This document shows, piece after piece, positions 1 to 58,540 of a stretch of 64,000 nt of DNA. Origin of the DNA: Candidatus Omnitrophota bacterium (lineage in GTDB: Bacteria > Omnitrophota > Gorgyraeia > JABMRG01 > JAFGKX01); contig JAZDPX010000045.1 in the NCBI GenBank assembly GCA_043797125.1, forward strand, positions 72,338 through 136,337. Reading direction: 5' to 3'. Each line of letters starts with the position of its first letter. Positions within the stretch are counted from its first letter, which is position 1. The position numbers and the translations under genes are program-made. A model generated the notes under the pieces. It made no database searches, was not told the origin of the DNA, and saw only the letters and a program-made list of their open reading frames with translations.

Positions 1-3000
1 TGCGTTGAGCACAAGAGGATACCTGCTTCCTGCTGTGTTATCTTTTCCTTCCAGCGTAGGAGCTTTTCCCACAAGCGCATTTACCTTTTCTTCCCTGGTG
101 CGAGTTTCCGCCATAAGCGTTTCTGCTTCCCTGAACATATTATCTAACTCAAACACCTTCTCGTAATGCGCCTTTACCTTATCAAGCCTGGTTTTTATAG
201 TGCTGTCTTGCAAATCGAGCTCTTTGGCCTTTTCAAGCTCGTGGGCTTTTTCAAAATATTCTTTTGCGCGCTTGAAATCTTCTTTGTCGCTTCTTGCCAA
301 TATATTCCAATCCTTATCTTTTAAAAGGGCCTCTGCCGCGTTGACATATGTTGTCTTAAGTTCATTTATTACGGGCTTGCCCTTGCAATGCTTAAAAGCT
401 TCTTCAAGAATCGTTACAGCTTCTGTAAAATGATTTTGTTGCGAATGCTGCTTTGCCTTATCTAAGAAAGCCTGCGCCGCCTTATCTATTATAACCCGGT
501 CCTCGGGTTTTACCTCAAGGGCCTTGCGGAAAAACTCAACAGCTGTATCAAGGTCTTTTGCGTCAAAAGCAGCCGTTCCTTCGTTTAAGCAAATTTTCGC
601 GATCTCATCTTTTAATATGGTGTTATCTGGATATTTTTTAAGCGTTGTTTCAATAATATTTATCTTCCCCCGGGCATCCGGCTCTGTCTCTGCTTTCTCT
701 AAACACTCCTGGATATGGCTGGCTTCTTCAAAAATACCCCCCACCACAGCCTTTAACTTCAAGATGGTTTCGTTGTCTGGCTCTATGCTGTGCAACATTG
801 ACAATATGCAATATTTCATTCGCACTGACGCTTTTTGCTTTTCTTTCTCGCCCTCTTTGCCTGAAATCTCTGAAAGCAAAAGCTCAAGCAGCTCTGCTGA
901 ATGCACATTGCCATATATAGAGCTGATAAATCGCATCGCTTCTTTTAGCTCCATATTCTCAAGGGTTTCTTTAAAGATATTCTCCAGCCTCGCCCTGGCT
1001 TCATCAGTCTTACCCTCCAACAGCTCTGTCGCCGCTAAATAAAAATCTGTCTCCAGCGCAAACTCCTTGCTAAAGCTTCCCTTTTGCGCCTGTTGTATAT
1101 AATATCGCGCCATGTTGTATTGTTCGCTTCTTATCGCTATTGTTATCCTTGCGCAATAACCCAAACATATGTCTTCTTCCTCCGCCGCTTTTGCAACAAG
1201 AAGGCCGCTGTGCTTTATTATTCTTTGTACGTTTTCCTCCCGCGGCGAATACCACTCATACGCCTCCAGCATCCTAACATGCAGCTTAGAAAATTGGCCG
1301 AATTTTTCCGCAATCTTTTCATACATTTCATTGAGCCGCTCATAGTCTTTGGCTTCTTCATAGATATCAAGCGCCTTCCAATACAGAAATTCTTCATCCG
1401 GGTAGGCCTTGATTGCCTCTTTTATCTCTGTTTCCGCTCCTTTATAATCGCCGAGTTCGCGTTTGCAGATTGCGCGCACAAGGCAATGCTGCGCATGAAG
1501 GCGTTTTTTCGTTTCTTCTTTCGATAAATCCAGCTCTATGCCCGGAAGGTCAAAGCTCTTCCTGCCATGGCCAAGCTGCGCAATAAAGCTTCTATCCTTT
1601 CTAAATTTTTCATACAAACTATCTTCTATTTTTCTGAAGCCATGCAAATCCTTATTTAATTTTATCCAGCGCGTCAGTTCCACGTCGTACTTGCCGAATA
1701 TCTGTCTTTGCAATATTCTCAAAAGGTGGTGCGGGTTTTTATGCCATTGGCCGTATTCCGGCCAGGCCTCTTTATCTTCATTTGCTATGGACAACAACGT
1801 CTCCGGCGAGATACGCGCCCGGCCTATCTCCTCAAACTCCTGCGAGCTGTCTTTCCTTGCGCGCACTATAATGGCCGCGTTCTCGCGGTCATAGACAAGT
1901 TCAAGCAGTTTCTGCCGTCCCGGTTCATAGCCTATAAAATAATGGCATAGCTCATGAAATAACGCCACCGGGTTACCTACGAGTTTCTCGTGTAAAACAA
2001 TGAGGTTGCGCTCATCGTTTAAGGCAAAGCCGAAAAGGTCTTTTATTAAATCGGCATAGGCGAAATTATATAAAGCCGGGGTTTCCTCGTAAAAATCCGT
2101 TATTTTAAAAACGAACTGTTTATCTTCCTCAAGCATAAGGCCTGCTTTTTCAACGGAGTCCCTTAGGGCTGTTTTTGGGTCGATTCCGGTCTTATTAAAA
2201 AAGAGCGTGCCTAAACTAACGACTTTTGTCGGCTCGCCTTCAATAATTTCGTCCGCGCCTACCGGCTTGCATATCTCTATCTTCGCCTGGTTTTTATCCG
2301 GTTTTGTGAATTTAAAGGTCTCCAGGATTAGCATCGTCTCCTTTCCTATCCTGCCGGCTATATTATCCGAAGTCGTGGTATCGTATTGCGGGAAGCCCAT
2401 ATTTTCATAATCTTTGCGGTCGATTTTGCTTATGCCCGATACATTGTCTATTCTAATAAATTCAGGCCTATTATCGGCTGGGCGCTGTTGTTCAACGAAT
2501 ATCATTTTTGCAATTTCCTGTAATCGCCCCTCTAAAGCCTGGGCTTTAGTGATGTTGTTTTTTGCAATATATTCTTTCAAATCGTTTTTTATAAGATCGA
2601 TATAGCCCTGTTTAAAATCCGCTGCCGCCTTTGCTGCTGCCGTAAACTGGTCATATTCATTGCGCGCGCCGCCGCCTTCAAGTTCTTTGTGCGTCTTTAT
2701 GCCAAAAATCAGCATTACCTGTTTGCCGTAAACCTTAACAGGCGCGAAAAGAATACGCAAATCCCCGGTCAGCCGGATAGCCCTTGGCACTACAGGTTCT
2801 TCTTTTGCGCCTATGCCGTATTTTATACCTTTGAAACCCGTCCTTTTTTTGCTTTGGATCTTACCAATGTTATTTCCCGTGCTGGAAATTTTTTTCAGAG
2901 CCTTAAAACATGACATTGCCAAGCGTTTATTTTTCTTGTCTATTACCAGACTTTTATATTGCGTCGCCGCTTCATCGTCAATAACCAGCTTGTATTTTGT

Positions 3001-6000
3001 TTCAGCTGTTTTTGCAACATCCGTCAAAGAACGTTCTGTTGCAATATGCTCCAGTATTTTCTTTTTGTTTTTTGTAACGGGCTTCTTTGCGTGTTGTGCG
3101 GTTGGGGTTTCTTCAAGCGCGCCTTTGGAAAAATTACCCACATAGATATCTGTAAGCTTTTCCTGCGCAATAACCTGCTCTTTTCTTATCTTTTCTCTTA
3201 GCTGCGTGTTTTGCTTTGGCAGCAATGCCTCCTGTATGCTTAATAGGAAATAGTGCGTTTTGTATTCTTGCGGCATATTTATAAGCCTGTTATTAAGCCT
3301 TGAGTAATTATCGCCAGCTATTTCTATTTTGCCTATCCCTTTAATTGTAATTGTAGCGCCTCCGCCTTGTTCTTTTTTCTCTACTTCGAATTCTATCTTG
3401 TAATATTTGCATACATATTCCTTTATTTCGTGCAGGAGAGCCAGCGGATATTCAAGGAGATTTTCATGCAGCACCAAGAGTTTATCTTTTGGTTCGGCGT
3501 GCCCAAAATAATCCAATGTTGGATGCTCCGCAGACGGTTTAAAGCTGCAGAATTCAGGCTTATCCTTTTCCGGGATATTTTTAAATAGCTCAAGAAACTT
3601 GCCCCATATTTCCTTGTCGCGTAGCGGGGTTTCTGCAAGCGCCTGGGCTGATCTCATTAATGTCTCAACGCGATTTTTATCAAGCGCTTTAATCTCAACC
3701 TGAGCTAATTCATAAGGCGCAAACCCATACCTTTCCAGTTCTATATCCTGTATGCTCAGGTATCTTTTGCCATTCCTATATATAATCCCCCTGGCGCCGC
3801 CCTTCTTACCGATTCGGGCGGAGGCGGGATTTCCTATTTTTACCTGCGGCTCAATAACAGATGATGTAATGGTTGCTTTCGCGCTGGCTGCTTTTACCTG
3901 GCCGCCTAGGGAATCCAGATAGCGAGGTACATAGCTTTCCGGTATGGTTACGGTAAAGGTTTCCTTTTCGCCTTCGCCATAGCAATCCAGTATTTTAATA
4001 TTTAACAGGTTGGCTATGCCTTGCGTCAGTTTTGATACTGCTTTCTGCTGAGCCCCTGTTAAATGATTATAATTGGTGTAAAGCTTTTCTTTTACATAAA
4101 CAAATTCTCCGCTTTCAAGATAAACACCGTGTAAAAGCACGAGTCCCAATGTATCCATTGCAGCATTTTTCGTAATTATAATCAACTCTTGGGCGTCGCC
4201 GATAAAGCTCGTCAGGCTGTGCTTGTTCTCACCCGCGGATGTGCTGCGTTGGCAATTGCCTTGCCCGCTTGCCCCATAACGGCCTATTTTTAATGTTTCC
4301 TTTAAATCAAAGCCCACTTCTGCGCTCACCGCTTCTTTCGACTTTTGTCTGCTTGTGGGTAATTTTTGTAAAGTCTTAAGTAACCCTATCATATCTGCTG
4401 CGATAATGGATTGGGGCTTATTCTGGCTTTGCAACATTTGATAAAGCGTATTAAGCCCTGTTATAATATCTGCAAGGCTGTTTTCACATCTCTCGTATAG
4501 TTTCCTGACTTCTTGTGCTTGCTCATCTAACGGGCACTGCTCAATAAGCCCTATTTCATCCATTATGCCCATTGCCTGCTTTGATATGCTGTTGTCTTTT
4601 ATTATATTTAACTTGCCCAGCAGCCCTATGGCGCCGTTGCGTTTGTTCTCGTCTAGGTTTTCCTTATCAAATCTTAACTTCTTAAGCTCATTTATGTCCT
4701 TGGAAAGTATGGCTTCTTTTAGCTGTACATCCGCGGCTCCAGCATAAAGATCTTTTAGTTTGTTTTCTAGTTTCTGTATGTCTTCTTCCGAAGCGACGCT
4801 GCTTTCCCTAAAGCTTGCGCTATATTCTCCTATATGGCGTTTATAGTTTTCAAAGTTAGTTTTAAACCATGCATCAAATATGCTAAGATTATCGTCTGGG
4901 GCCTCTGGGCTAGCTGTTTCTTTAAGTTTAGCCAGTTCACTAAATTTATCCCTTACATGATGCGGGGCCTGTTTGAATGCAAGTCTGTGCGAGGCTTTGT
5001 GCTCTATTATGCCTTGTGTTCCTTTTAAAAGGTATACCCTGGCTAGTTCGGTAAGCCTTGTGTAAGCTGCTTCACTTTCTTTGCTGTATGCTTGCCTAAA
5101 ATTAAACAAATCTACAAGAAAATCTGCGTCTGCAAGGGCTTCTGTGGCGTCGGAATGGAGTTTTCTTTTTGTTTTGCTAATTTCGCCTCCTAGCAGATCC
5201 GACAGGGAATCGCAGATAACCTCTTCAATTGATGTTTTGGAAGACGCTTCATCCATGTTGGTTAGATCCAGCCTAGCTATTTTCTGTGGGTCGTCAAGCA
5301 AATCAAGGCTGTGTTTATATTTGGCAATTAGCTCTAATTGATATATAAAAACTTTTGGCTCGCGGGATAGTTTAGAAAATAGGCCAATATAATTACATTT
5401 GTTTTCTATTTCTTGCAGGAGCGTTAGAATAGCGCTTAGTTTGCGCGATGCAGAAACCGTACTTGCGTCGTAATTATCAAATATTGTAGTAAGGTTGTAC
5501 AGATTCGCATCGCCGGGAAACAGTTGATACCACAACATAATTATTTCTAAAAAGTCGTGAATGAATTGTTTTTGCCGCTGGTAATCTCTCTGTTTGTTGA
5601 CTGAAACTAATAGCTTAAGTGTTTTACTTTCTGTTTTTGTCAACAAAGATATGCTCTCTTTCTTAAAACCTAAGCCATTTAAACAGGCCTCTGCCGCCCT
5701 GTAAGCCAGCTTGATACAGTCTTGTCGCGCAAATTGTTCATTCCAAAACCCTAAAAGCAATGCCTGAGAAAAAAGTTTTTGCGCTTTTGCCTTTTCTTTC
5801 TGGCGGGGCGCATCTAATAACTCTTTTAACTTTTTTGGCTCTGTAAAGCGTTTTATAAGCGCGGGAGTATGATTTGTAAAACTTGATAGAGCGAGAATAA
5901 AGTCTGCGTCAATCTTGGCCTCATCATAAGAATCAATAACATCTTCTATGGCATCCTTTGCCTTCTCAAAAAGCTTTGCATGCATCTGCGCTCCAGCAAG

Positions 6001-21000: not shown

Positions 21001-24000
21001 TAAGTCCAGTTTGTAGCATAGCTCATCCAGCTTTTCCTTTGTTGCTGGGGTGCCTATGGTCTCAAAAAACACCCTTATGCATAAAGGCAGGATAACTTCT
21101 GACGGCTCTGTTACATTTTGCATGCCATCAACTAAGAATGATGTTTCAAATATATCTCTGCCGGAAAAGGCCCGTAAATCAACTTTCTTTTTAGGCGTTA
21201 AGTTATATTTCTCTTTATATAGTTTTGCTAAGTATGCGCTATTTAAAAATTCAACTAATACCCTTCTGTCCTTTATGCCCCTTGCCTTGTATGCATCAAA
21301 AAGGTCTTTTGTTAAGAGTCCGCCGCTGTTAAAAAAACGTATCATAATCTTTGTTTGCTGGCCTAGAGTGTTTGGGTTTACCTCTATGCCAGCTTGTTTA
21401 AAAATTTCTATTAGCTGTTTATCAAATGCTTCGGGCGTGGGAACGCAGCTTTTAAGTTCGTATAACAGCCTTTCTGATAGCGCCATGGGGGTTGTTGCGT
21501 GTTTATTGGATGAATAATAATACTGCAAAAGCTGCTCTAGTGTGTTTATGCGTTCTTCTTTGGCTTTTGGCTCTTTCCAAAAATCAAACATCATAATAAT
21601 GGTTTCGTCCAAGTTCCATGGGAGGGTGGCGCTCAAAAACAGATCCAATAACTGCGTTTTGCCTGTTTTTAATTCCTCCAAAGCATCTGTTGCTATTGTT
21701 TCATAAATCATTTTTTTATCAGCTTTATCTGTTATGCGCTCCAGCATCTTTGCAAAAAAGGTCTCCATGGATTTTTTGTCGAGGCTTTCCTCGCGATAGT
21801 GTTTGTATAAAAATTCAAAAACCGTTTTGCGCACGGCCGTTCTGGAATAAACCAAAAACGGATATTTCATAAGAAAATCAGCTTTTGCTTTATTGTCTAA
21901 TCCTGTATCTTCTAAAAGCCTGTTCGTTAATAAAGAAAGATCGTTGAAGCCGACTAAAAGCCCCTCTTGCCTGCTCGCGGTTGTCATAATGTCTTCCCAG
22001 TCTTGCCATGAAAGCTTATCGCTTATAGCAAAGGCCCCTTCCCAAATAAATTCTATATAAGTAAGCAGGGACTCCCCGACAAAAGAAAACGTAATGGTAT
22101 CCTGGGGCATTAGAAAGTTCTGCGCTGTTTGCAGATATGCGATTATGTCGTTTTTGTTGTTCAGCTTTCCTTTTAATGTATTTTTAAGCCGATTTTCCAA
22201 TATTTCCCGGAAGATACGCCTACTATCATCATGCCTTGAAGAGTGCTGAGAAGGCTTCGTTTCTATTTGGGGCCATGAATCTTTAAGAAGCTTAAATTTT
22301 ACCATTTCCGCCATTGTCGTGCCAAGGCTTTGTTTTATTGTCGCGAAGAAATTTTTATAATCCTGCCTTAATTGCGCATATTTTTGCTGCGTAAGTATTG
22401 TGTCGTAAACTCCATATGCCTCGGGCCTCATGCGTTTAAATGTGAAAACTTTGTACGGCGTAGGAGGGGTTATGTCCTCAAGAAGAAGCTTGGTTATATC
22501 CTGGTAATCATCGTTGTTGCCGCATATTAACGCGAAAATCAAAGCCGGCAGATAATGCTTCTCATTATCTTTTGTGGTTATGTCGTTCGGGACTGCTTTT
22601 AACGCGCTATCAAGGCCCTCAACTAATATTTCAAAAATATGCTCTGGAAAAGACGCGGCTTTCTCCAATAGTTGTGTCAGCTCATTTATGTTTTTTACCG
22701 AGTAAGAGCTCTCTATTGTTTCCAGCAGCAGCGTTTTATTGGATAGCTGCCCTAGGGCCTTTTGTGAAAATAGATGTTTTGTCTTTGTGTTTATCCAGTT
22801 ACTGCTGTCTAAAATTTCTTTTATCAACTTAATCCTTTTCTCATCCGGAAGGTGCACGTCAATTAAATCAACCGCTGTTCTAAGAAGATCCGGGAGTTTA
22901 TCCAGCTTGCTTAATATATCAAAGGTCTTGGCAGCTTCTAAGACATTGTAGCTTGCTGAGTTCATTAGCGTCAAAGCCCAGACATCTGCGTCTATTTCCT
23001 GCGCAAATTTTTCTTTAAGGGTGGTCCCCTTTCCTTGGACCATGTGCCGTATCTCGTGCGCCAGAATAAAGGCTATTACGTCTTTGGTTAAGCATTCGTT
23101 TTTCTGGAAATGCTTTAAAAGCCCCAGGGAAATGCATACAATTTTATGGTTGGTGATAGTAAATGCCGTTACCTCATCTGTTTCTAACAGATATAGCGCT
23201 GCGTCGGCCCATTCTTTTCCTGTTAAATGGGCGCAGAGCTTCTGAAATATCTCGTTGATTTCTTGATAAAGGCCGGAAAACGGCGAGGCTTCGCCATCTT
23301 CTATAAGACAGTGCATTCTCTTCAAAATATCTATTGTGGACCTTTTTCCATTTGCATCGGTGGCAGCAGTTAATCCTGCTATATCTACATCTTCAGGCAA
23401 GTCTGGTGAGCGTATTCGCGTAGGCGCCTTAGGAGCATCTCTTGGGCCTTTTTCTTCTTTGGTAATTGTGTATGTTTCTCTTTTGTCCAGCACGCTCTTA
23501 AGCTCTTCGTTGCGCTCCTGGTGCGGGATCTGTTTCTTGGCCATATCCGGGGATTGCTCTGGGTTACCAGTTTGCAGCGTTGTAGCGCGGGCAGGCTGCC
23601 CAACAACTATTTCTAATTTGTAGTCCTTAAGATCCAGTGGCACTAACAGCGCCTCGCCCAACGCAGGCACAGGGAAGTTTTTCTCTTCTGTTTCTGTTGG
23701 AGGAAGCCACATAAGGTCAAACTGGCCCCTAATTTCAACATTTGCGTTTATTCCTGCGGCCTTAAAGCGCCTAACCATGTATCTATATTGCTTTTTGACT
23801 GCTTCATCTACATGTGCCCTAAATTCCTCTCGCGACTCTTCTGGAATATTAAACATTTCGTACAGCGGGTTATATACGTCCTTCCACCCAAGCACCGCGG
23901 CTCTTTCCTCGCGGCCCGTATAATTAGAAAACTCTGCCGAGCTGCCTATACGCGCAAACGTGCCTTCCATGCCGCTTGCTGCGTCTGTGTCATAAACAAG

Positions 24001-25326
24001 CTCGCATTGTTCGGATGATAAATTGCCTTTAAACATATGCCGAGTTTCATATGCCATGTTGTTATATTTAATAACCGGCATAACAGATTCCATGACCCCT
24101 GAGTCTAACCCCGGCGTTGCAATATCTCTTATTGTAGATATAATATCAACTGCGTAGGCAATATTTGTGTCTATAAGAATCTTTGCTATGTGCTGGTTGT
24201 TGTTCTCTATAATGCTGACTCCTCCGGCGCCTGCTAATTTGCGTTTGCACTCTTCTATAACCGAGGTTTCTGTTGTTATAACTATTCTGCCGGATTGCTC
24301 CTTATCTAAAAAGAAGATCCCGTGGCCCCTCGCCCTACGATTCGGTTTGTACACCAAGGGCAATGCAATATCGCCCCAAAGCGCCCTCTTTATTGTGTCT
24401 TTAAAGTCTTTGATGTCTGCCGGGTTTACAAAAAGTGCATTTTGCCCGTCGTCGTCTCCAAACGTGACAAAAAATTCCGGCTGCTGAATTGGGCCGCTTC
24501 TAAAAAAGTTTCTCTGCTGGTATTTATGATTAAATCTATTTCGCATTTGTAGAAACGTAAGCCGCATAGCTGGCGGCAGGTTTGGGAAGGGGTTTGAGAT
24601 CTTCTCTGTCTGCGGAATCTGTTTCTTGGGCGTTTTTAGCACAATCTTGTTTAAAGGGATGCTCGGCTCGTATGCTGTTTTGCCTGTCGTTTCCCCGCTT
24701 ATGGCTTCTGCGCTCTCGCCCCGGCCTTTTTCTGTTTTTGCGTTAATCGCTTCTTCAAAAAGGTCTTGCACGTTTTCATTTTCGCACGCAAGCGGCGCAG
24801 CAAGGCTGCTTTGCATCGCCGTCATAATATCCCCATAGCCCGGCAATGCGCCTTGCATTCTTTGCTCATAAAGCCTCTCGCAGTCGCCATCTCCGAGATT
24901 TGGGCATATTACGATATAGGAGATGTCTTTTTGCTTTAAGATATTTGTTATCGCGCGGGTATGGAAGCCGCCTGTTACCAACACGCTTTTTACGCTACCG
25001 GTTCTATCCATCGCTCGCAATGTGTTTTCAATTAACGCAACGTCTCTTTTTGTGGCTAATTCGTAATATTCTTTTGCGTTGTTTATCGCTTCCTGGTTTA
25101 TCTGCGTTGTTAAAATATAAGGATTTATGGACAGGCCGCATTCCGGCATGTGTTTGCTTAAAAATGTTTTTATGTTAGCTATGTTTGTGTGTTCTGTGTC
25201 ATTATTAATGGAGGCGAGGCGCTCGTTGGTGAGTTTAAGCGAAAATAAATCGTTAAGCAGATTTATTGCTTTTGAGAATTTAACAAGCTCGCGCTGGGTG
25301 TTGTTTTGAGAAATGGCGGTAAGCAT
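1..25326 (-). CDS. giant multidomain protein, 3'-partial (continues beyond left window edge); >8,400 codons in window; helical-repeat arrays, M48-like HEXXH module, internal duplications
   Basis: Minus-strand frame with codon starts at positions congruent to 1 mod 3 is open at every hand-translated site. Sites checked: 1-300, 3361-3615, 6541-6720, 11701-11991, 14881-15183, 23011-23253, 23821-24559, 25258-25510. The provided track lists no long minus ORF in 1..25262, as expected for a frame open to the window edge. The plus-strand ORFs here are low-complexity antisense artefacts. First in-frame ATG (reverse complement) is at 25324-25326, and an in-frame TAG lies just upstream at ~25499-25501. 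Confidence 0.6.
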   Translation of the reverse strand, partial: MLTAISQNNTQRELVKFSKAINLLNDLFSLKLTNERLASINNDTEHTNIANIKTFLSKHMPECGLSINPYILTTQINQEAINNAKEYYELATKRDVALIENTLRAMDRTGSVKSVLVTGGFHTRAITNILKQKDISYIVICPNLGDGDCERLYEQRMQGALPGYGDIMTAMQSSLAAPLACENENVQDLFEEAINAKTEKGRGESAEAISGETTGKTAYEPSIPLNKIVLKTPKKQIPQTEKISNPFPNLPPAMRLTFLQMRNRFNHKYQQRNFFRSGPIQQPEFFVTFGDDDGQNALFVNPADIKDFKDTIKRALWGDIALPLVYKPNRRARGHGIFFLDKEQSGRIVITTETSVIEECKRKLAGAGGVSIIENNNQHIAKILIDTNIAYAVDIISTIRDIATPGLDSGVMESVMPVIKYNNMAYETRHMFKGNLSSEQCELVYDTDAASGMEGTFARIGSSAEFSNYTGREERAAVLGWKDVYNPLYEMFNIPEESREEFRAHVDEAVKKQYRYMVRRFKAAGINANVEIRGQFDLMWLPPTETEEKNFPVPALGEALLVPLDLKDYKLEIVVGQPARATTLQTGNPEQSPDMAKKQIPHQERNEELKSVLDKRETYTITKEEKGPRDAPKAPTRIRSPDLPEDVDIAGLTAATDANGKRSTIDILKRMHCLIEDGEASPFSGLYQEINEIFQKLCAHLTGKEWADAALYLLETDEVTAFTITNHKIVCISLGLLKHFQKNECLTKDVIAFILAHEIRHMVQGKGTTLKEKFAQEIDADVWALTLMNSASYNVLEAAKTFDILSKLDKLPDLLRTAVDLIDVHLPDEKRIKLIKEILDSSNWINTKTKHLFSQKALGQLSNKTLLLETIESSYSVKNINELTQLLEKAASFPEHIFEILVEGLDSALKAVPNDITTKDNEKHYLPALIFALICGNNDDYQDITKLLLEDITPPTPYKVFTFKRMRPEAYGVYDTILTQQKYAQLRQDYKNFFATIKQSLGTTMAEMVKFKLLKDSWPQIETKPSQHSSRHDDSRRIFREILENRLKNTLKGKLNNKNDIIAYLQTAQNFLMPQDTITFSFVGESLLTYIEFIWEGAFAISDKLSWQDWEDIMTTASRQEGLLVGFNDLSLLTNRLLEDTGLDNKAKADFLMKYPFLVYSRTAVRKTVFEFLYKHYREESLDKKSMETFFAKMLERITDKADKKMIYETIATDALEELKTGKTQLLDLFLSATLPWNLDETIIMMFDFWKEPKAKEERINTLEQLLQYYYSSNKHATTPMALSERLLYELKSCVPTPEAFDKQLIEIFKQAGIEVNPNTLGQQTKIMIRFFNSGGLLTKDLFDAYKARGIKDRRVLVEFLNSAYLAKLYKEKYNLTPKKKVDLRAFSGRDIFETSFLVDGMQNVTEPSEVILPLCIRVFFETIGTPATKEKLDELCYKLDLGQKQFKRKNPLSKAGRDRLESNISMTEKKANPNTAFSMQYEPFFQKMFNLPFYGDRTDFAGSRQDFFEGLFGFILNSSISFEGLIKITLKQLPPSYFRNFVLFSLLAREIKKNHQQLNPYDLQSFNEIAKEDKEFMKKLEQVLPHMVSDDKLATTNASLFLYLQRKAKGDKEGGIGVGAYVHLALKETIKTYLKELRGKKRHAFLDYVVRKTKYVYEKTSGYVSILANLFNLSISPAELWLFEHNFLKSRYVKKIKKIMDKKGLDTEGAQEALEAGKIAAFVPLIKNYYLEEIIGVIYTNAELIFLRKAILSYIARKRKHAGVSKIGIFYFDFNHQQKLAQPDAAIATALEQNIEAKIEAEIAVEGKINYILSLLPRSQPLRDKYLEMIAENVLSDIGISETEKVIHLQNLLGEFYNAYFRDKYSLKALELEKALKPDMHINDEIELIKKYFPDQSYSRDDILKSVLEKVETFQEYEQISGLFYAEKKGILDDEDKIKNVYYEEKFKVLFERMSCEEKKDFVLWIAGISQMPLFMREYEELLGVSFEPLKDIYSISPSAAYPHAGEGTRELLIGEMFLGKDGILKNEKIFMKLIDTVYNFIIKKTELGKDIKQGDLKKIFLTIMQEADGAKRLKVVKALFVNFAFLLKQEGQTSHAYYEIIPKVMESLDVIGIQVAQILVFSEDVRIPQALRNAFAALSSKANPLTKKVAFETLKNTNQQGKIKRIGKPLGSAKIKIVFEAEDYNNEELALKIKRPDVQHYLDEETAFFRRVCTSLRKKGLKIPHGFESRASEGLGRDADFKREIENTKKLEKQLAEINKENGYKFSSGEKIEFLVPKIREDSTETVLYAEKIAGSDLDNKEELKAKAGFTEAELIKLKKTIFDFLMVQLFGKGLYLADPHGGNFRIVRKDGKIKVYLIDVGAVEECKIDKKTYKDLLYGLIATDLGIKTKGNEHMLPAMFFKKTGYLTNGMSAREILDVIFSKMAPENRPYKNADAFMKSLPAGISLKYFLRSPVKVIKDVLKTGKKPGQSPDMVKKEISHEADEKQKKAVHRALVRIRSPEALEAVANSDALNVKKLAKKLNLTQDQIRQRLIQIAQPINVIIVKNRLTLHHEGPYAHTRRGVSKKGDTAIWLGEKLFASEKITDEDIALLLLEEAKHILDPYADHKIISHSKGLQRKLNRAAKALREPLPATICEADMAESMLKNPFVKIFIIGAGIFAALTYLVRNPDETLKRIDQYFNKKPQASLSKTAPVSISNVPMLDKDITDLLKRAAEDAQAADDLINLYYERADTEPMISLGIMGSLIDMARGGSGYIEEKLKQIDAAPLLKYTPNKLDAIYWIDKLTGFDNPTAFSCLVKLGNLGEAEAVSVLENATYGRARKTAKQALKEINPDKFAENIALEHLFTDSPSANALATMVNAGNVAARGELINLILKGNAWATIRAASADLKDDAKMRQLLKYMDTDVLINPTAEGKNQDFDFAALRVLIDIDNPNIYKTLRKLVSMGATVASYGLRYAAEQGKISVLGTLIDILKSNDVKNHFYYSVADSLLILASDENPAPDEIKNKALGVFKDDFKKALPYMQFEPGVNSPGVMAVVNKSIDLIGTDKVKKIRQDIEAKYNRAPQKILLYLCMPEVVYPLLEAHKQMAENGIDIDLSYFISAAFAEGYIAFAQDCIAGEETVFHIALPLGLDRFGESEERLRKKGFLPQNYKGFVRGGTTYNNEAGDNFPLGTFLSPKDALIAHGALLLEDRDNFIKEVKRHGYDTARLTEEEIEVGTYLQYCTGNSVPYLKEYGTDIVGKIGTGTHGNGIYNAQWPPAGAEFLEETGIVEKTGEPKKSEVAKEISANKPNASGIAIAGTLMTQIGGAWLRLWRRIRMLWAALRLGREESPDMADKELVHEVSNEELKKIIDENRMYRINIYDWWENHMQERLGRVRGKIHRTAELEGFDVKTMADKLGLKEDQAREELIRVGKKIDIIVVKNSFRLYRGGPIAHARRGVSRKDDRAIWIGQNLLLSADIDDTDIARLLLEEAKHILAPKLEHKDIAHNQALLKRLEEKAMFFPRGAEEETAEYRGKQIDEIKIENTPGIGPVRLVHILDKYTFGDYILANQHFIGPSIYYYDKEDINRHAAKLKILAGIKEDMSWLEFKWYLERNAQEAKDVFRCVNNQTSLKTKLLRFLKILPGNAPTKSKNDVKNLLAENNQVIIEDIWDILLDARALEEEDYDLIYDIISRFGAEGKRKILDEIMHKIFSPGEMNKIYYTNMIRIIAKALDRHNEAIKRDFLGGVKKGLRVYYSQTRNEDVLAKTEEGDVSVPRGAYVLKQILPHINDQTTMEELFEMVKPLLTYNTRGSDNPGPREREIGLWLCKNSLRRLEDDELKLFLLEQACSCLSYSYRGSTRKDMGPGMMDILAAELIAETMPYLAFSNQETLMPKLIENLGYAELVDRGSRIDKITKIASKFNNWQKANILYAGNFSKAKAPSWIKEYLPDQRPVDKKEEYRLVADIAASIETRGLAGRMADCGVNAEEAKKLLTKEIPLRYQDMLTADMAATTAVAMAESRIGIDKIRSLLMDTIPQQYNNADLCYYMIGAIKAAAIMAKGGIDIEIIERAIGEKWPIQCRGNTSLAARIIEQAGIRAVGLIKSGVADKIVSAAKDAAKENISKGAVESLFIYDLVLLYHDINRTIPAEEAPEEASLPDYSMNKDKAFRAIGLIGNDKDTEYGWSYAYETAWSELVQRYALMDEIKIGETILQLIKLGVRFEEIKTIFTIGLKGNERLAKSVSRIAESEIKRYGLISPRDKTDLTTLPCSDTPFAYEKGDEDAKALIMLLFCEIPLKYREIPVEAAKAAAGLVWRGAEITKVKNLFLENQGTYGKVQKFNKILDSGAIYKIADKIEKLKPTGSSKTIARVIDLLFFQMPDNYDYADRFADAVETLEKIASSDIIDKIATKLNWLVSEKEARAKLAELLFFRLQTDPLCRQFQGPSGRNETSDVAMRAHVYAYEVAEGLGEITGSGVINKIAEKLGKLIGEEKAKAKTTELILSEMPFYDHVSAYETAPLLEQIAALDIIDKISAKLSTRLGEEEAKTKVIDFLLFKLPKLYGKNFYRIAKAAGSIISEAGFSFESTAEFLLETPNPHLDTTAKTIELIEELAESDAIAKIVTELRNHLNALTGKASEEKAKAKTIDPLLFKVFLKYDNNSHEILNAILQMLKTGVSISAIQECLENFASADKSTSLETIKILGNIAGSEQISKIRSALKQQLDDFGATNTIELMLTRWLPHEYSSVTCEKGPGQDDLSREINKAINLASSDPAASKLIELLFIKLPSCKYGINVCDLVIKMIKAGASIEQTEQLLTEEMPKMYGAQAKEAVPGLLELGQRFEKSNLKRFLEIVIKRLPRELSNFTASIESFMRGMQTIPAQRLLQYIDSRDKKRAMDIMLLDNNHQSIFEHIELFMNALEDKQEDKKKKSEKTLFINNVFIQVASESSPGNNAPPSHVQFWQIVKAACDLKEKHGNWREEIRSIELDNQAFKELKIELLEKNRFLESWEQFQRLEMLISIIGANDLEKALNLYRFSGTEDGRKIYAYYHKLLTHQAVKSGYSKTIEKMILDPREFLDLEDTNVPLSNHIKKISRLLELEYVDIGAEELLLGLILGKYDHLQVLQPLSTTIDISDVDTEIKTIKGGSLLQRLASYGAEEGILREVLVKYFKQKQESDDYKTQTNGTANGINKILTLLQKGQTTFGTIVDQTKNAKFGVEELKGCGLILPRYTISLMRKSDPDTIMTGSELSNCMSLSSGKNTHYIFNPNSQILILSKETASADGIRYNKILATSVVTADREITRRISELEEIIKSVAPSSINPSQYDEAIEKLRDLFDAEKLFGSDFMDKISKEVYISLDNVEGDANFASSNKMAEKIVETAYIKFFKEYFEERGTTLRGRPINKSKVIVGTRHSKFLHSLDGKLDNYFLTQILNVYSDKADSTVNFLPIEDSYKPTPAKELNGVKPLSPEDLLEISYIESKAFKDIALGGNHIAGIEMELLGIMYNEALKGERRKNLSLGYFKDGKLLGYVIAHVGYDKEREEEIVCISDFAVLHKKGKAAGALMKELFKSIRGTAKMFKEKYEKDIKIIFDSTPDAQGSYWLLMPRKDDSEATKLKKQQRLAEAGLIIESPAEADTQPGKDFIKFVLRVDLDAPEQNYKNSRELVPVAQIGKDGEFTEIDLARQTATIKDLKGDKHPVKLELQSDETLKALITAVETLIKDKPAHRKLLEMFLKLREKSPPALYTFDTLIEDAFGTALPEQNTILLYKNLLNNPNALLHEIEEYVCKSNNIQFKLQDDTLVIAKSKLYILKSITKIKLPAPILEWLNIKLRQNPENKTHYYLRALAKATLGETDEKLTKAIKQQAGTEKAYVQINQLKFIKDDESEAMVDVYERAPGSAYGEKLGTLTLYQRTMDHPLRMVQAGIDALGIKDSERNWLLYFMFRPLQYAQPKFYIYNKLIKGLTSFASPEHRLIALYEDFADEPIAAWHELMKYLIKAGKLKIKFKHSHWGKNKIVVEDSDKKEKAEINITGEALSIALKNPKESDYLLKALQREIFKDSDKKLIRKIQHKQNPPAEDVSILSLINSSCCWFGKLKIAADKIARPEAKIKTLTNLAIAQAKAGLKEEAKKTFDDVKTTIEENDGITYKISYLAELAITQAQVGLKEEAKKTIIAAENLLAKTKEGLFKQEGYESLAAAQIETGLFDDAKNNINETINASRKFALLIRLAIKQAKEGLAEKAESTLEEAKDIIKEEPVYSADFEDVPTGWANLGAAQAQIGLTKEAKESFAKAQSLLDSKGVLAYGVETHWGYFVKAQIRAGFFDDAKYTMDKHNAGGVSISDIASAKMQTGLLDEVKDMIDKMHYTNDKFELLINLIAKQVEKGLVKDAINTLKDAQGVMHATSRASYINKLAELATAQALVGLTEEAEATIFKARMALDDISGSSKLKARVILAGAQMHAKLFEKAKDAIEDVIDSYDEAKIDADFILALSSFTNHTPALIKRFTEPKKLKELLDAPRQKEKAKAQKLFSQALLLGFWNEQFARQDCIKLAYRAAEACLNGLGFKKESISLLTKTESKTLKLLVSVNKQRDYQRQKQFIHDFLEIIMLWYQLFPGDANLYNLTTIFDNYDASTVSASRKLSAILTLLQEIENKCNYIGLFSKLSREPKVFIYQLELIAKYKHSLDLLDDPQKIARLDLTNMDEASSKTSIEEVICDSLSDLLGGEISKTKRKLHSDATEALADADFLVDLFNFRQAYSKESEAAYTRLTELARVYLLKGTQGIIEHKASHRLAFKQAPHHVRDKFSELAKLKETASPEAPDDNLSIFDAWFKTNFENYKRHIGEYSASFRESSVASEEDIQKLENKLKDLYAGAADVQLKEAILSKDINELKKLRFDKENLDENKRNGAIGLLGKLNIIKDNSISKQAMGIMDEIGLIEQCPLDEQAQEVRKLYERCENSLADIITGLNTLYQMLQSQNKPQSIIAADMIGLLKTLQKLPTSRQKSKEAVSAEVGFDLKETLKIGRYGASGQGNCQRSTSAGENKHSLTSFIGDAQELIIITKNAAMDTLGLVLLHGVYLESGEFVYVKEKLYTNYNHLTGAQQKAVSKLTQGIANLLNIKILDCYGEGEKETFTVTIPESYVPRYLDSLGGQVKAASAKATITSSVIEPQVKIGNPASARIGKKGGARGIIYRNGKRYLSIQDIELERYGFAPYELAQVEIKALDKNRVETLMRSAQALAETPLRDKEIWGKFLELFKNIPEKDKPEFCSFKPSAEHPTLDYFGHAEPKDKLLVLHENLLEYPLALLHEIKEYVCKYYKIEFEVEKKEQGGGATITIKGIGKIEIAGDNYSRLNNRLINMPQEYKTHYFLLSIQEALLPKQNTQLREKIRKEQVIAQEKLTDIYVGNFSKGALEETPTAQHAKKPVTKNKKKILEHIATERSLTDVAKTAETKYKLVIDDEAATQYKSLVIDKKNKRLAMSCFKALKKISSTGNNIGKIQSKKRTGFKGIKYGIGAKEEPVVPRAIRLTGDLRILFAPVKVYGKQVMLIFGIKTHKELEGGGARNEYDQFTAAAKAAADFKQGYIDLIKNDLKEYIAKNNITKAQALEGRLQEIAKMIFVEQQRPADNRPEFIRIDNVSGISKIDRKDYENMGFPQYDTTTSDNIAGRIGKETMLILETFKFTKPDKNQAKIEICKPVGADEIIEGEPTKVVSLGTLFFNKTGIDPKTALRDSVEKAGLMLEEDKQFVFKITDFYEETPALYNFAYADLIKDLFGFALNDERNLIVLHEKLVGNPVALFHELCHYFIGYEPGRQKLLELVYDRENAAIIVRARKDSSQEFEEIGRARISPETLLSIANEDKEAWPEYGQWHKNPHHLLRILQRQIFGKYDVELTRWIKLNKDLHGFRKIEDSLYEKFRKDRSFIAQLGHGRKSFDLPGIELDLSKEETKKRLHAQHCLVRAICKRELGDYKGAETEIKEAIKAYPDEEFLYWKALDIYEEAKDYERLNEMYEKIAEKFGQFSKLHVRMLEAYEWYSPREENVQRIIKHSGLLVAKAAEEEDICLGYCARITIAIRSEQYNMARYYIQQAQKGSFSKEFALETDFYLAATELLEGKTDEARARLENIFKETLENMELKEAMRFISSIYGNVHSAELLELLLSEISGKEGEKEKQKASVRMKYCILSMLHSIEPDNETILKLKAVVGGIFEEASHIQECLEKAETEPDARGKINIIETTLKKYPDNTILKDEIAKICLNEGTAAFDAKDLDTAVEFFRKALEVKPEDRVIIDKAAQAFLDKAKQHSQQNHFTEAVTILEEAFKHCKGKPVINELKTTYVNAAEALLKDKDWNILARSDKEDFKRAKEYFEKAHELEKAKELDLQDSTIKTRLDKVKAHYEKVFELDNMFREAETLMAETRTREEKVNALVGKAPTLEGKDNTAGSRYPLVLNA
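5900..7060 (-). other. array of ~36-40-aa alpha-helical hairpin repeats (TPR-like) within the giant ORF
   Basis: Translation of 6541-6720 gives ...FALLIRLAIKQAKEGLAEKAESTLEEAKDIIKEE.... The DNA periodicity (gcctctgcttcttc...gggcctgggc motifs) recurs across ~5.9-7.1 kb. Confidence 0.5.
11400..12300 (-). other. HEAT/armadillo-like ~55-aa helical repeats within the giant ORF (recurrent GEE[EK]AKAK / IDKI..KL motif)
   Basis: Translation of 11701-11991 gives ...AEKLGKLIGEEKAKAKTTELILSEMPFYDHVSAYETAPLLEQIAALDIIDKISAKLSTRLGEEEAKTKVIDFLL.... The DNA repeats visibly (ttcttcttcgccaa / ttttcgcc motifs). Confidence 0.45.
23044..23058 (-). other. HEIRH (HEXXH) zinc-metallopeptidase motif inside the giant ORF, with upstream NAF-like and GLL elements in an M48/HtpX-like arrangement
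   Basis: Careful translation of 23011-23253 gives ...EVTAFTITNHKIVCISLGLLKHFQKNECLTKDVIAFILAHEIRHMVQGKG. Confidence 0.5.
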
Positions 25327-26477
25327 TTTCTCTTGCGCTGCTTCGATTTCTTCGAAAAGCGCAAGGTGGTCGATGCGCTTGGAGAGCGCAAGGTAGTCGA
25401 TGTAGGCGAATAAATCATTGTGGGCTGTGGGCTGTGGGCTGTGGGCTTGTTGGCTGGTGACTTTGTGACCTGGTGACCTGGTGACTCCGCCAGTCCTGCT
25501 AGATAACTATAAAATTCCTCGTCCGTTATTTTGCCCAGCTTAAATTCCAAGCTTTTCGAGAGAAGCTCCTGTAATTTATCTTTCTCGAGGGTTTCTGAAA
25601 GTTCCTTTATCAACGCCTCCCTTTGTTCCTGGGCTTTGTTAAAATCTATTGCCTTCTCTTTTTCGACAAGCGCGATGAATGCCTGCAAATTTTTATATTT
25701 TGTTAAATCTGTTTTTGCTTTGTTGGAATATTTTTCTAATTGCTGGGCGTATTCTGAAAGCGTGATCGTTTTGTTGCTGTAATCATCGTTTGCCCTGTCA
25801 AGCGCAAGCATATCCTTTGCGTACGCTTCGGCTTTTAGCCTGTTTAAATCCGACCTTAAAAGCGCCGCGAAAGAAATTACATCCTGCTTGTTTAGCTGGT
25901 ATTTTTTATTACAATCAAGATGTTCAAGGTATAAGCCTCTATCCTCAACGCCTGTAGGCACTAAATATTTATCCCTGTTGGTTATCTTGTAAAATTCCGC
26001 CCCTGTAAAAAGCGCTGTTTTTACAAATGCTTGCGCAACCTGCTTTTTTCTTTCTGTATCCGGGAATTTATCGTAAAAGGATGTATCAAGCTCTCCGGAG
26101 GCGCCTTCAAGGCATAAAAGATGAAGGTTGTGCTTTTGCGCCAGGTTATCTATTATGCCTGCTATGTTAAATTGGGCGCAAGCATCCGCATGGCGGTCCT
26201 GGATGTGGACAATTAACTTTTGCTGGCTGCCTTTATATGTTTCTAAGACTCTGCCGTGTTTTTGGGATACTGACAAATCCAGCGGCGTAAGCGCAAGGCC
26301 GGTTTCTGCTTCTTTTGTTTCTTCATTAACATATCTTTGCGCGTGGGAGGTTTTCTTAAACAGGGTCTGGCCGTCAAAGCCGTAAGCAGGCGTGTTTGTT
26401 GTGAGAAAACATATTATTAGTATTATTGAGATAATCCTAATAATAAATTTCTTATGAGGCTTATGTACGTCTATCAT
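25263..26477 (-). CDS. signal-anchored secreted/membrane module (404 aa); probable 5' portion of the giant gene, separated from it by a frameshift inside a heptamer repeat
   Basis: ATG at 26477 with N-terminal hydrophobic helix (MIDVHKPHKKFIIRIISIILIICFLTTNTPAYG). Protein-like sequence continues until the repeat tract at 25420-25489. After the tract, this frame becomes low-complexity junk while the giant frame becomes protein-like. Confidence 0.55.
   Translation of the reverse strand: MIDVHKPHKKFIIRIISIILIICFLTTNTPAYGFDGQTLFKKTSHAQRYVNEETKEAETGLALTPLDLSVSQKHGRVLETYKGSQQKLIVHIQDRHADACAQFNIAGIIDNLAQKHNLHLLCLEGASGELDTSFYDKFPDTERKKQVAQAFVKTALFTGAEFYKITNRDKYLVPTGVEDRGLYLEHLDCNKKYQLNKQDVISFAALLRSDLNRLKAEAYAKDMLALDRANDDYSNKTITLSEYAQQLEKYSNKAKTDLTKYKNLQAFIALVEKEKAIDFNKAQEQREALIKELSETLEKDKLQELLSKSLEFKLGKITDEEFYSYLAGLAESPGHQVTKSPANKPTAHSPQPTMIYSPTSTTLRSPSASTTLRFSKKSKQRKRKCLPPFLKTTPSASLLNSQKQ
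25420..25489. repeat. (GTGGGCT)4 heptanucleotide tandem repeat followed by degenerate 7/8-mer units (TGGTGAC-like); coding phase changes here
   Basis: Four perfect GTGGGCT copies at 25420-25447, then tgttggc, tggtgac, tttgtgac, ctggtgac, ctggtgac. Both reading frames through the tract encode AHSPQPT-like peptide. Confidence 0.8.
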
Positions 26478-26567
26478 ATCTTTTACTTTTTAAAACATTT
26501 AATTAGTAGATGCAAAAATAGAGGGCTTTTACACCCCTTCCCCTTTTCATTGCCTTTATGTGTTATA

Positions 26568-26596
26568 ATTATACACTACAATAGGCTATTTGTCAA
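26568..26596 (-). promoter_or_regulatory. sigma70-type promoter for the giant gene (TTGACA-17 bp-TATAAT on the minus strand)
   Basis: Reverse complement reads cTTGACAaatagcctattgtagtgTATAATtataac. The -35 is at 26591-26596 and the -10 at 26568-26573, about 90 nt upstream of the ATG at 26477. Confidence 0.55.
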
Positions 26597-26782: not shown

Positions 26783-26860
26783 TGGCGTCCCCAACCGGAT
26801 TCGAACCGGTGTCGAGGGCTTGAAAAGCCCTTGTCCTAGGCCAGGCTAGACGATGGGGAC
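26783..26860 (-). tRNA. tRNA-Glu (anticodon UUC)
   Basis: Reverse complement is GTCCCCATCGTCTAGCCTGGCCTAGGACAAGGGCTTTTCAAGCCCTCGACACCGGTTCGAATCCGGTTGGGGACGCCA. It folds as a cloverleaf, closely resembles E. coli tRNA-Glu, and encodes the CCA. Confidence 0.85.
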
Positions 26861-26904
26861 GCGGAAAAGTTCAAAATTCAAAATGTAAAATTCAAAATTC
26901 TTCT

Positions 26905-29353: not shown

Positions 29354-31930
<2,577 letters not shown>

Positions 31931-31957
31931 TTATCCTTTAACCTTACGCTTTACACT

Positions 31958-32272
31958 TTACGCTTTTTCTACTTCCCCGGCCCTGAACCGTATTTTTTTA
32001 ATCTTGTCGCTTTTTAATAGCGCTGCCATGTTTTTGATCAGCTCGCTTTCTTTTGTGCGCAGTTGGTATATCCACATTGTGCTGTCCACATTTATCACAA
32101 GGTCGTTGTTTCTTATAAGCGCTGGGCTGCTATGTTTTGCCGCCTGCTCACCTGCGGCCTTGCGCCAGGCGTCATATATGTCATATTTGCCGGTGTTCGC
32201 TGTCTTGTCTATGCCGCCTATCACTTCCTTTACAGCGTCACTTATATGCGATGGTTTCTTATACTGCCTCAT
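31958..32272 (-). CDS. DUF721 / DciA-like small protein
   Basis: 104-aa ORF between dnaN and gyrB. Pattern W..A.G...A.H..P......L.V.V.S..W..EL matches DUF721 proteins typically found at this locus. Confidence 0.55.
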   Translation of the reverse strand: MRQYKKPSHISDAVKEVIGGIDKTANTGKYDIYDAWRKAAGEQAAKHSSPALIRNNDLVINVDSTMWIYQLRTKESELIKNMAALLKSDKIKKIRFRAGEVEKA

Positions 32273-34810: not shown

Positions 34811-35012
34811 TTACACACCCCTTTTTAGCTATTCACAACTTATCCACAGCAATATTTAAGCGCGCGGACACGCGTAATTAACGCGGGGCATATTATAACA
34901 GAACAAAAATTCTTTTTCAAGCAAAATTTTCCGACGGAAAAATTAAAAATTTTTCCTTGACTGGGGAGTTTTATGTGTTATACTCGTATAACCGCACAAC
35001 AAAGGGTGTAAA
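34811..35012. promoter_or_regulatory. candidate oriC / dnaA promoter region with a perfect DnaA box TTATCCACA (34841-34849), a near-match CTATTCACA, and an AT-rich DUE-like tract
   Basis: Lies between divergent dnaA and rpmH. Sequence aaaattctttttcaagcaaaattttccgacggaaaaattaaaaattttt follows the boxes. Confidence 0.5.
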
Positions 35013-35150
35013 ATGAAAAAAAATCTAACATTAAAATCTAACCGGAAAAGAAAATATAAACACGGGTTCAGAAGAAGAATGTCCACCAAAACAGGAAGGC
35101 GTGTCCTGGCAAGGCGCAGACAAAAAGGGCGCAAAATCCTGTCTGTATAA
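35013..35150 (+). CDS. rpmH: 50S ribosomal protein L34
   Basis: Encodes [45 protein letters not shown], not listed in the provided track. Confidence 0.9.
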
Positions 35151-35182
35151 AACAAGCCCGCACAAACCCGCCGGCAAAACAG

Positions 35183-35392
35183 GTGAAAAATCTTTTAATC
35201 TGCGCAATAAAGTTTTATCGTTGTTGTCTGCGGACACACTTGGCCCCTGCGTGTAAATACCACCCGACGTGTTCCGAATACGCAATTGAAGCCATAAAAA
35301 CAAAAGGAGCCCTGCGGGGCTGTGCCATTGCAGCGTGGCGGCTTTTAAGATGCAATCCGTTTTCAAAAGGAGGCTATGATCCTGTAGGATAA
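35183..35392 (+). CDS. yidD: membrane protein insertion efficiency factor YidD
   Basis: 69-aa ORF with the conserved YHPTCSEYAIEAI...CNPF... core. Confidence 0.85.
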   Translation: MKNLLICAIKFYRCCLRTHLAPACKYHPTCSEYAIEAIKTKGALRGCAIAAWRLLRCNPFSKGGYDPVG

Positions 35393-35396
35393 AATT

Positions 35397-46855: not shown

Positions 46856-46968
46856 AATGTAAAATTGCAATTCAAAATTAAAAATTTGTACAATTTTGAA
46901 TTTTAAATTGTAATTTTGAATTTTTCATTTTACATTTTTAATTTATACGTCTGCACACAGGAGGAGTT

Positions 46969-58533: not shown

Positions 58534-58540
58534 TTAATGG

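Follow-up and report, generated by a model that had tools for sequence, protein, structure and literature searches.

The window analysed here is a 64,000-nt stretch of contig JAZDPX010000045.1 (assembly GCA_043797125.1, positions 72,338 to 136,337 of the forward strand) from a Candidatus Omnitrophota bacterium. Its minus strand carries a giant gene that starts at ATG 26477 and runs off the window, the 3' end of the gene and the C-terminus of the protein lying beyond window position 1. As sequenced, the gene is read in two frames, a 404-aa open reading frame (ORF) that begins at the ATG and a very long stop-free frame, termed here the giant frame, that is open from 25506 onwards. Residues are given on two scales, giant-frame aa (counted from 25506) and frame-corrected aa (counted from ATG 26477). 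The features that define the 5' part of the gene are listed below; transmembrane (TM) and signal calls throughout are by hydropathy (Kyte-Doolittle) only.

26568-26596, minus strand: sigma-70-type promoter, TTGACA-17-TATAAT, about 90 nt upstream of ATG 26477
25263-26477, minus strand: 404-aa ORF (ATG 26477; stop 25263-25265), the 5' part of the gene, with signal peptide and first half of the head
26388-26450, minus strand: signal peptide or signal anchor, with a K/H-rich n-region and a hydrophobic core at aa 10-30 (Kyte-Doolittle 2.15)
24715-26300, minus strand: conserved head with a TIKI/TraB/ChaN/erythromycin-esterase fold, frame-corrected aa ~60-590, spanning the frameshift
25419-25485, minus strand: tandem-repeat tract at the frame junction, made of two arrays and adding ~15 linker residues
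25454-25485: 8-mer GTCACCAG, 4.0 copies, from a tandem-repeat search
25419-25456: 7-mer CCCACAG, 5.3 copies, from the same search
1-25506, minus strand: stop-free giant frame, 8,502 codons by reverse-complement translation, running past the window edge

The giant frame, in which each codon has its lowest coordinate at 1 mod 3, contains no stop from 25506 to 1; the program-made ORF list lacks it because that list leaves out frames that extend past the end of the sequence. About 5.7% of triplets would be expected to be stops from base composition, and we estimate the chance of 8,502 stop-free codons at ~1e-217; in the other frames of the first 26 kb the longest ORF is at most 297 aa. A codon log-likelihood model, for which 12 housekeeping genes from the window served as the training set, scores the frame above zero and above both off-frames in all nine 1,000-codon blocks. 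Its relative synonymous codon usage correlates with that of the window housekeeping genes (r = 0.94), and the G+C contents of the three codon positions follow the same order as in those genes (GC1 > GC3 > GC2). The giant frame is a genuine native coding sequence. The initial annotation had called this minus frame open, with more than 8,400 aa in the window, and we find exactly that: 8,502 aa and no in-frame stop between 1 and 25262. It had further expected more than 8,800 aa with the 404-aa module included, which agrees with the at least 8,823 codons obtained once the frame is corrected. Its description of one continuous ORF is right in that there is a single gene, but as sequenced this gene is interrupted by a frameshift in the repeat tract of 7- and 8-nt units.

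The giant frame begins at 25506 and not at 26477, since the ATG at 26477 belongs to the 404-aa ORF in the other frame; the two overlap by ~240 nt in which both are open, and the earliest ATG, GTG or TTG of the giant frame is codon 61 (25326). The promoter that had been assigned to the giant ORF as its own does match the consensus at 12 of 12 positions, but it goes, as does ATG 26477, with the 404-aa ORF and thus with a different frame. The frame-corrected query retrieved 43 homologues, every named one from Omnitrophota. In an alignment of 33 homologues both halves of the head are continuous across the frame junction, and a motif scan of 80 related genome loci found both catalytic motifs within one ORF in ~70; a frame-split head occurs at none of the 80. 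Because the homologues are unbroken across the junction and none of the loci is split, we conclude from these comparisons that 26477 to 1 on the minus strand is one ancestral gene, frameshifted in the repeat tract as sequenced. The earlier suggestion that the 404-aa secreted module is part of the giant is borne out by the 33 aligned homologues, by the 80 loci and by the single ORF that a small length change in the tract restores. An arrangement of two genes, one for a secreted protein of 404 aa and one for a cytoplasmic giant that starts internally (for example, at ATG 25326), could draw on the purine-rich AAGAGAAA that precedes the ATG at codon 61. Such a split would, however, run through one domain that is confidently folded and to which each half contributes catalytic residues and part of the beta-sheet core; every homologue is fused, and past about codon 332 the 404-aa ORF consists of ~70 aa of low-complexity, out-of-frame junk up to its stop. 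We regard this arrangement as extremely improbable. The leader of ~90 nt holds, at 26522-26537 (minus strand), a weak hairpin of 5 bp (3 GC) with a T-run behind it, similar to a terminator and within the chance expectation of the scan; an Rfam scan returned only tRNA-Glu and did not match the hairpin.

The 8-mer and 7-mer arrays are the two top-scoring tandem repeats in 27 kb and lie exactly at the junction. Here the linker is ~15 residues longer than in nearly all homologues, the extra residues are exactly the repeat-encoded ones, and residues 336-351, the loop that the repeats encode, are disordered in the AlphaFold2 (AF2) model of the head. Addition of one 7-mer, removal of one 8-mer or insertion of one nucleotide gives a single ORF that starts at ATG 26477 and stays open as far as the edge of the window (8,823-8,828 codons), and the opposite length changes lead to stops at codons 351-358. 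The repeat units are intragenic and not divisible by three, and a single-unit change toggles the frame. Simple-sequence contingency loci, such as the surface-protein genes of Neisseria, Haemophilus and Campylobacter, undergo slipped-strand phase variation. The window tract resembles them in having repeats that are not multiples of three early in the gene of an exported or surface protein, where a change of one unit toggles the frame; it differs in its few units, in its two adjacent arrays of different periods and in that its variation is putative. We know of no description of phase variation in Omnitrophota.

The junction could also be one of programmed -1 (or +2) ribosomal frameshifting or of transcriptional slippage, with the 404-aa protein as the product and a rare full-length giant beside it. 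Both frames are open over the 240-nt overlap and an 'A AAG' single-tRNA slippage context (ACA AAG) is present; however, the junction has no canonical X XXY YYZ slippery heptamer, its RNA folds no better than shuffled sequence (z = 0.05) and it offers no homopolymer suited to transcriptional slippage. None of the homologues in the 80 loci uses such a mechanism, and the short product would amount to only one half of a catalytic domain. With neither a slippery site nor an RNA structure, programmed frameshifting is very unlikely.

More weight attaches to an assembly or consensus artefact at the tract. The gene would then be continuous (more than 8,820 codons) and constitutively expressible, and the conclusions on its family and domains would be unaffected. 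The break falls exactly in the repeat tract, the most fragile spot for consensus calling, the 25.5 kb downstream are fully open with native codon usage, and all 80 of the paralogous loci are unbroken. A second possible indel site is found at an A6 run between coaC (flavoprotein, ends 42015) and coaB (DFP, ATG 42001) at 41467-42746 on the plus strand; the two overlap there by 15 nt and are either natural separate genes or a fused coaBC with a homopolymer indel. This junction is, however, adequately explained by the ATG and Shine-Dalgarno-like motif of coaB itself. The tract measures only ~67 nt and would be spanned by ordinary reads. All 146 homopolymers of at least 6 nt inside window ORFs (64 of them in the giant frame) are in frame, so that the assembly should have few random indel errors and a consensus of high indel quality; the junction itself contains no homopolymer at the break. 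An error limited to the tract would, moreover, most likely stem from real copy-number heterogeneity in the population. We consider an artefact to be a realistic if rather unlikely explanation.

Alternatively, the gene could be a young pseudogene, a costly gene recently and irreversibly inactivated by repeat slippage with no time for stops to accumulate. The frameshift cuts the head before its second catalytic His, the cargo behind the head is highly variable across the family, and an apparent positional orthologue in another Omnitrophota genome (locus L060, described below) has no cargo at all, so that the cargo would be dispensable in this relative. The absence of any stop in 8,502 codons and a codon signal undiminished in nine of nine blocks stand against this, and since codon bias is intact over 25.5 kb without a stop, long-standing pseudogenisation is unlikely. 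The perfect promoter has been kept, and 'irreversible' is hard to argue for a defect that one repeat-unit change undoes. We judge recent inactivation to be unlikely.

The AF2 model of the head, built on the 33-sequence alignment, has a predicted local distance difference test (pLDDT) value of 82.8 and a predicted template modelling score of 0.73. It shows an alpha/beta fold with a parallel beta-sheet core, as in the TIKI/TraB-PrgY/ChaN/erythromycin-esterase superfamily (VvRRSP, HopBA1, EreC, ChaN), and a helix at residues 6-27 at the N-terminal signal. The head is ~560 aa long in the family and its fold is split by a helical insertion of ~290 aa. Invariant in the alignment are Q93, D94, H96, E124-G125, E161, R480, N487 and G505-G-F-H508-T. 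The superfamily has a catalytic set of two His and two Glu (E-x-H, E, H), which in VvRRSP is E3900-x-H3902, E3930 and H4030 (PMC6254334). D94-x-H96, E124 and H508 of the head match this set with the same 28-residue spacing, an equivalence drawn from motif order and spacing and not from superposition. The predicted acid-x-His / Glu / His catalytic set of the head is thus intact. Domain scans with Pfam and NCBIfam, run in two offset tilings that covered the whole in-window protein, gave no match of a curated sequence model to the head. It differs from the superfamily in this respect, in having Asp for the first Glu, in the helical insertion and in its fusion to thousands of residues of cargo.

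The head family numbers at least 472 confirmed matches in GTDB species genomes, nearly all of them Omnitrophota, often with several genes per genome and sometimes in tandem. Its complete ORFs in the genome loci span 531-3,793 aa, ten of them head-only, and nine further ORFs of at least 3,850 aa run off the end of their locus. A large, Omnitrophota-specific family with a signal peptide, a conserved head and variable cargo is well supported by these data, and the initial assignment of the gene to an Omnitrophota type agrees with the finding that the head, like the QIGK module described below, has named homologues in this phylum only, as well as with synteny to the Omnitrophota contig JBAZLY010000003.1. 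Within the family, proteins of ordinary size and giants form a single evolutionary series, from a 531-aa head-only protein to more than 8,800 aa. The closest subfamily (45-46% identity) also has a C-terminal tail of ~255 aa, which is confined to it and occurs in two of the 47 complete ORFs of the genome loci. The tail is present in P0002-P0028 and at L001 and L002, and we would expect the giant to end in it as well, beyond the window. Proteins of this subfamily contain 2-6 copies of an inter-domain motif, K-x-S-S-[SA]-G, against ~0.2 expected; in the window giant the motif does not occur. The paralogues P0002-P0022 end in the conserved ~255-aa tail (...A-x-[AS]-[AQK]-A), and K-[ATSP]-[SA]-S-[SA]-G recurs at their apparent domain boundaries, where it may serve as a linker or mark a point of processing. 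Tandem head genes are seen at L044 (2-16693) and L063 (2-11794) and also at L007, L019 and L074; the pattern is an ORF of more than 3,100 aa with an M48-ABC1 core, followed within 200-270 nt by a second head-bearing ORF. An origin of the giant by fusion of tandem family genes is unsupported, as it holds no internal relics of head or tail.

Behind the head, the window copy carries at least 8,200 aa of cargo, in which the following domains were located.

17968-23529, minus strand: conserved core cargo, M48-like through ABC1-like, giant-frame aa 660-2513, co-linear with loci L063, L044, L065 and L070
22927-23253, minus strand: M48-like zincin module (PF01435), with HEIRH at 23044-23058 and then QEIDAD
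18166-19077, minus strand: ABC1/UbiB-type atypical kinase-like domain (PF03109), with LALKIKRP, ADPHGGN and DVG
17314-17376, minus strand: sole strong internal TM helix by hydropathy, giant-frame aa 2711-2731
391-1476, minus strand: TPR repeats by Pfam, giant-frame aa ~8011-8372

Including the head, the co-linearity with the same four loci reaches from the N-terminus to frame-corrected residue ~2,840 and takes in M48 and ABC1. The M48-like module scores 30.3 bits for PF01435 against a cut-off of 20.3, with only model positions 9-79 of 186 covered; QEIDAD lies 16 residues past the second His and there are no flanking TM helices. The ABC1-like domain is well above its cut-off (PF03109, 85 bits against 22.9) and has the kinase motifs, namely the catalytic Lys, the D-x-H-x-G-N loop and a DFG-like motif. 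It is not a UbiB orthologue (TIGR01982, 70.5 bits against a cut-off of 487.55). Beyond Pfam, NCBIfam gave only weak similarities to Lit and UbiB, and a sequence search of the whole protein against the PDB returned TPR only. The M48-like HEXXH module and the TPR array of the initial annotation are therefore confirmed by profile, whereas its HEAT-like arrays correspond to sub-threshold matches to TIP120 and Vir1p only. Nor is the protein unannotatable, as had been thought, since structure and profile searches identify the TIKI-fold head, the ABC1 kinase domain and a module that recurs and is probably zincin-like. We have also withdrawn the idea that the cargo is orphan sequence: a word-indexed search was blank for the last 2,000 aa and for the ABC1 region, but exhaustive HMMER and tblastn searches found clear relatives. 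For Lys/Glu-rich helical proteins like this one, negatives in a word-indexed search do not mean orphan status.

The duplicated modules noted initially are confirmed. Tile-against-tile BLAST recovered internal repeats, and the protein has four copies of a module named QIGK and three of a unit named [QE]SPDMxKK. In the order of the protein, all on the minus strand and with giant-frame residues, the repeated and added blocks are as follows.

23386-23580, minus strand: [QE]SPDMxKK unit 1, a short copy, aa 643-707
17446-17991, minus strand: [QE]SPDMxKK block 2, aa 2506-2687, paralogous to aa 3372-3566
14809-15393, minus strand: [QE]SPDMxKK block 3, aa 3372-3566
11692-12366, minus strand: tandem duplication of ~100 aa, aa 4381-4480 and 4510-4605
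8155-10962, minus strand: block of aa 4849-5784 (frame-corrected 5175-6110), 39% identical to a 3,234-aa head protein of locus L001
7729-8361, minus strand: QIGK module ('QIGK...FHExxEY...HYLLRALQRE') copy 1, aa 5716-5926, model pLDDT 92.2, probably zincin-like
7108-7749, minus strand: QIGK module copy 2, aa 5920-6133
6043-7221, minus strand: tandem array of helical repeats within the protein, aa 6096-6488, with a weak TPR likeness judged from relatives
3139-3822, minus strand: QIGK module copy 3, aa 7229-7456
1609-2274, minus strand: QIGK module copy 4, aa 7745-7966, in which HELCH (HExxH) replaces HExxE

Because the core is co-linear with four loci and a later block matches L001, we conclude that the giant is a conserved core to which further blocks have been added. 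An exhaustive HMMER search with aa 5700-6899 found 230 relatives. The QIGK module (~210 aa) was present in 90 copies in 63 fetched proteins, usually two to four in each and 500-1,600 aa apart; these carriers reach 7,703 aa and all that are named are Omnitrophota. Its motifs are Q-I-G-K, SPP..YTF..LIEDLFGFA, ALH, FHExxEY and PHYLLRALQRE, with A114, H117 and E118 invariant, and in window copy 4 and some relatives HExxH takes the place of HExxE. Pfam gave no match to the module, even for short stand-alone relatives, and a Foldseek search against the PDB was not significant. The module is probably zincin-like, and the closest known systems are minimal zincins (the minigluzincins selecase, projannalysin and proabylysin; the catalytic cores of M48 and M56; the HExxH-domain oxygenases).

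Of the explanations for the locus, we tentatively favour a native Omnitrophota gene for an envelope platform that is OFF as sequenced through slippage in the tract, the tract being a putative reversible switch or a sign of population heterogeneity. Sec would export the giant protein, or insert it, via the N-terminal signal, and the protein would act at the cell envelope as a membrane-anchored platform for several hydrolase-type activities, much as has been proposed for other Omnitrophota giants. The lineage-specific 8-nt/7-nt tract in the disordered loop of the head would shift the downstream frame and so turn the gene OFF. The frameshift would most likely be a real slipped-strand copy-number change, giving an ON/OFF switch of the contingency type or a heterogeneous population, and the gain of one 7-mer or the loss of one 8-mer would bring back the full ORF.

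A number of observations weigh against this explanation. The arrays are short (three perfect 7-mers, two adjacent perfect 8-mers), and classical phase-variable loci have repeat numbers above those of this tract. Two scans of metagenome contigs, one with the exact core of the tract and one for close protein relatives, found no other copies of the locus. The tract heptamer also occurs in frame in the presumably essential ispA, and arrays of period 7 are ~8-fold enriched in the window, mostly between genes: its 64 kb hold 7 of them, and other Omnitrophota loci hold 15 over a total of 1.13 Mb. Because the heptamer is found in ispA and 7-mer arrays are common in spacers, the tract may have arisen as a side effect of some process that generates repeats throughout the genome, and not have been selected as a switch. 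The two offset tilings of the in-window protein gave no Pfam match to SecA_DEAD, C39 or S8. No secretion, pilus or glycoside-hydrolase/CAZyme genes are found among the 38 kb on the sequenced side of the gene, which hold housekeeping genes. Finally, because the protein has a signal peptide and a single TM helix, the ABC1-like, ATP-dependent domain would fall outside the cytoplasm; this topology is uncertain and odd.

In ispA itself the repeat is GCCCACA (2.9 copies at 61486-61505, plus strand), in frame within an ispA-like polyprenyl synthase ORF at 61006-61881. These heptamers are part of an insertion of ~17 aa, 'AHSPQPTPYHSLRSGTGQAAHRP', directly before the conserved KTGAL motif, and another copy of AGCCCACAG bounds the insertion; a small repeat-generating or insertion process landing in coding loops could account for it. 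The spacers of the window are rich in arrays of period 7-8 with differing units, at 26866-26900, 31922-31966, 37259-37346, 46882-46944, 47527-47647, 54019-54080 and 58540-58610.

A more speculative proposal, which we think improbable, is that the gene encodes a phase-variable, self-processing polyprotein, an exported precursor that would be cut by the TIKI-fold head, by the QIGK mini-zincins or by both. The cuts would fall at S|QIGK and [QE]SPDM in the window protein and, in its closest paralogues, at K-x-S-S-[SA]-G. Were this true, Omnitrophota giant genes would be operon-like polyproteins and not single giant machines. The QIGK module folds confidently in the model, has an H-E-x-x-[E/H] motif that resembles a metal site and recurs through many large Omnitrophota proteins, which makes polyprotein processing testable. 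A comparison can be made with MARTX and other modular multi-effector toxins, which are likewise very large secreted proteins with variable central enzyme cargo, protease-type modules, conserved ends (head and ~255-aa tail in the closest subfamily) and short conserved motifs between domains (in the paralogues, K-x-S-S-[SA]-G). Unlike them, the window giant lacks RTX and glycine-rich repeats, a CPD domain and neighbouring type I secretion system genes; it also lacks K-x-SSSG, and its processing is purely hypothetical.

Returning to the envelope platform, giant genes are already well documented in Omnitrophota (bioRxiv 10.1101/2023.11.21.568195; 10.64898/2026.06.07.730766); their proteins reach 85,804 aa and 147,155 aa, and in one dataset a protein of at least 10 kaa (thousand aa) is encoded on 24-28% of contigs. 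They are a signature of the phylum, and most of their sequence is uninterpreted. The window giant shares with these proteins ('Archaeovorin'-type, West-Roberts 2023; 'multi-enzyme' class, Nielsen & Lui 2026) the phylum, a very long ORF, a signal peptide and TM helix, unrelated enzyme-type domains amid TPR/helical scaffolding, internal domain repeats and mostly Pfam-dark sequence. At no less than 8,502 aa as sequenced and 8,823 aa frame-corrected, it is below the catalogue thresholds of 10,000 aa (Nielsen & Lui 2026, 10.64898/2026.06.07.730766) and >30,000 aa (West-Roberts 2023, 10.1101/2023.11.21.568195) within the window, its 3' end being outside. Most Omnitrophota giants carry a divergent SecA_DEAD domain and an N-terminal C39 or S8 peptidase, whereas the N-terminus here is the TIKI-fold domain; glycosyltransferase, methyltransferase, NUDIX and dockerin domains were, like SecA_DEAD and C39/S8, not found in the window giant. 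It has one internal TM helix in 8.8 kaa, compared to about one per 370-450 aa in the others, and its sequenced flank is housekeeping and origin-proximal, where theirs have type II secretion system/type IV pilus (T2SS/T4P), pilus or glycoside-hydrolase genes. The TIKI-fold head and the frameshift in a repeat tract also set the window copy apart. By a term search, the text of Nielsen & Lui (10.64898/2026.06.07.730766) does not use the terms frameshift, phase variation, ABC1 and M48 anywhere. The size of the gene is thus not new for the phylum; the head family, the QIGK module and the putative repeat-tract switch are useful leads that can be tested. As far as our searches show, the frame-toggling tract might be the first, unproven, hint of stochastic switching of such a costly gene.

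The gene adjoins the replication origin region. It starts ~8 kb from dnaA and has the direction of dnaA-dnaN-gyrB-gyrA-tRNA-Glu, which lie upstream on the same strand, with yidC, parA and parB diverging on the other; its transcription points away from the place where dnaA and yidC diverge. One marker of this order is given here.

26783-26860, minus strand: tRNA-Glu(UUC) between gyrA and the giant gene, by Rfam; a conserved synteny marker

The initial suggestion of a role in cell-cell interaction remains an extrapolation from the literature, and the sequenced side has neighbours of the housekeeping type in place of genes for secretion or pili. The composition skews reverse their sign near 34-36 kb, and from these and the gene arrangement we infer that the giant gene is co-directional with replication. 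L060 (Omnitrophota metagenome-assembled genome JBAZLY010000003.1, 2004-11593) has the identical order dnaA-dnaN-gyrB-gyrA-tRNA-Glu(UUC)-head gene. Its head gene encodes a stand-alone protein of 539 aa, is followed by a glmS-like gene (MCGIVGY N-terminus) and looks like a positional orthologue that lacks cargo. The divergent intergenic region of dnaA and yidC (~34811-35396), with the skew sign change nearby and small direct repeats at 35020-35049 and 35152-35171, is a likely candidate for oriC. Further along the window, a 251-aa ORF at 43626-44381 (plus strand) between tRNA-Val (42948-43024) and tRNA-Leu (44345-44433) is LAGLIDADG-like (PF14528, E = 1.6e-10) and may be a free-standing gene of the homing-endonuclease type.

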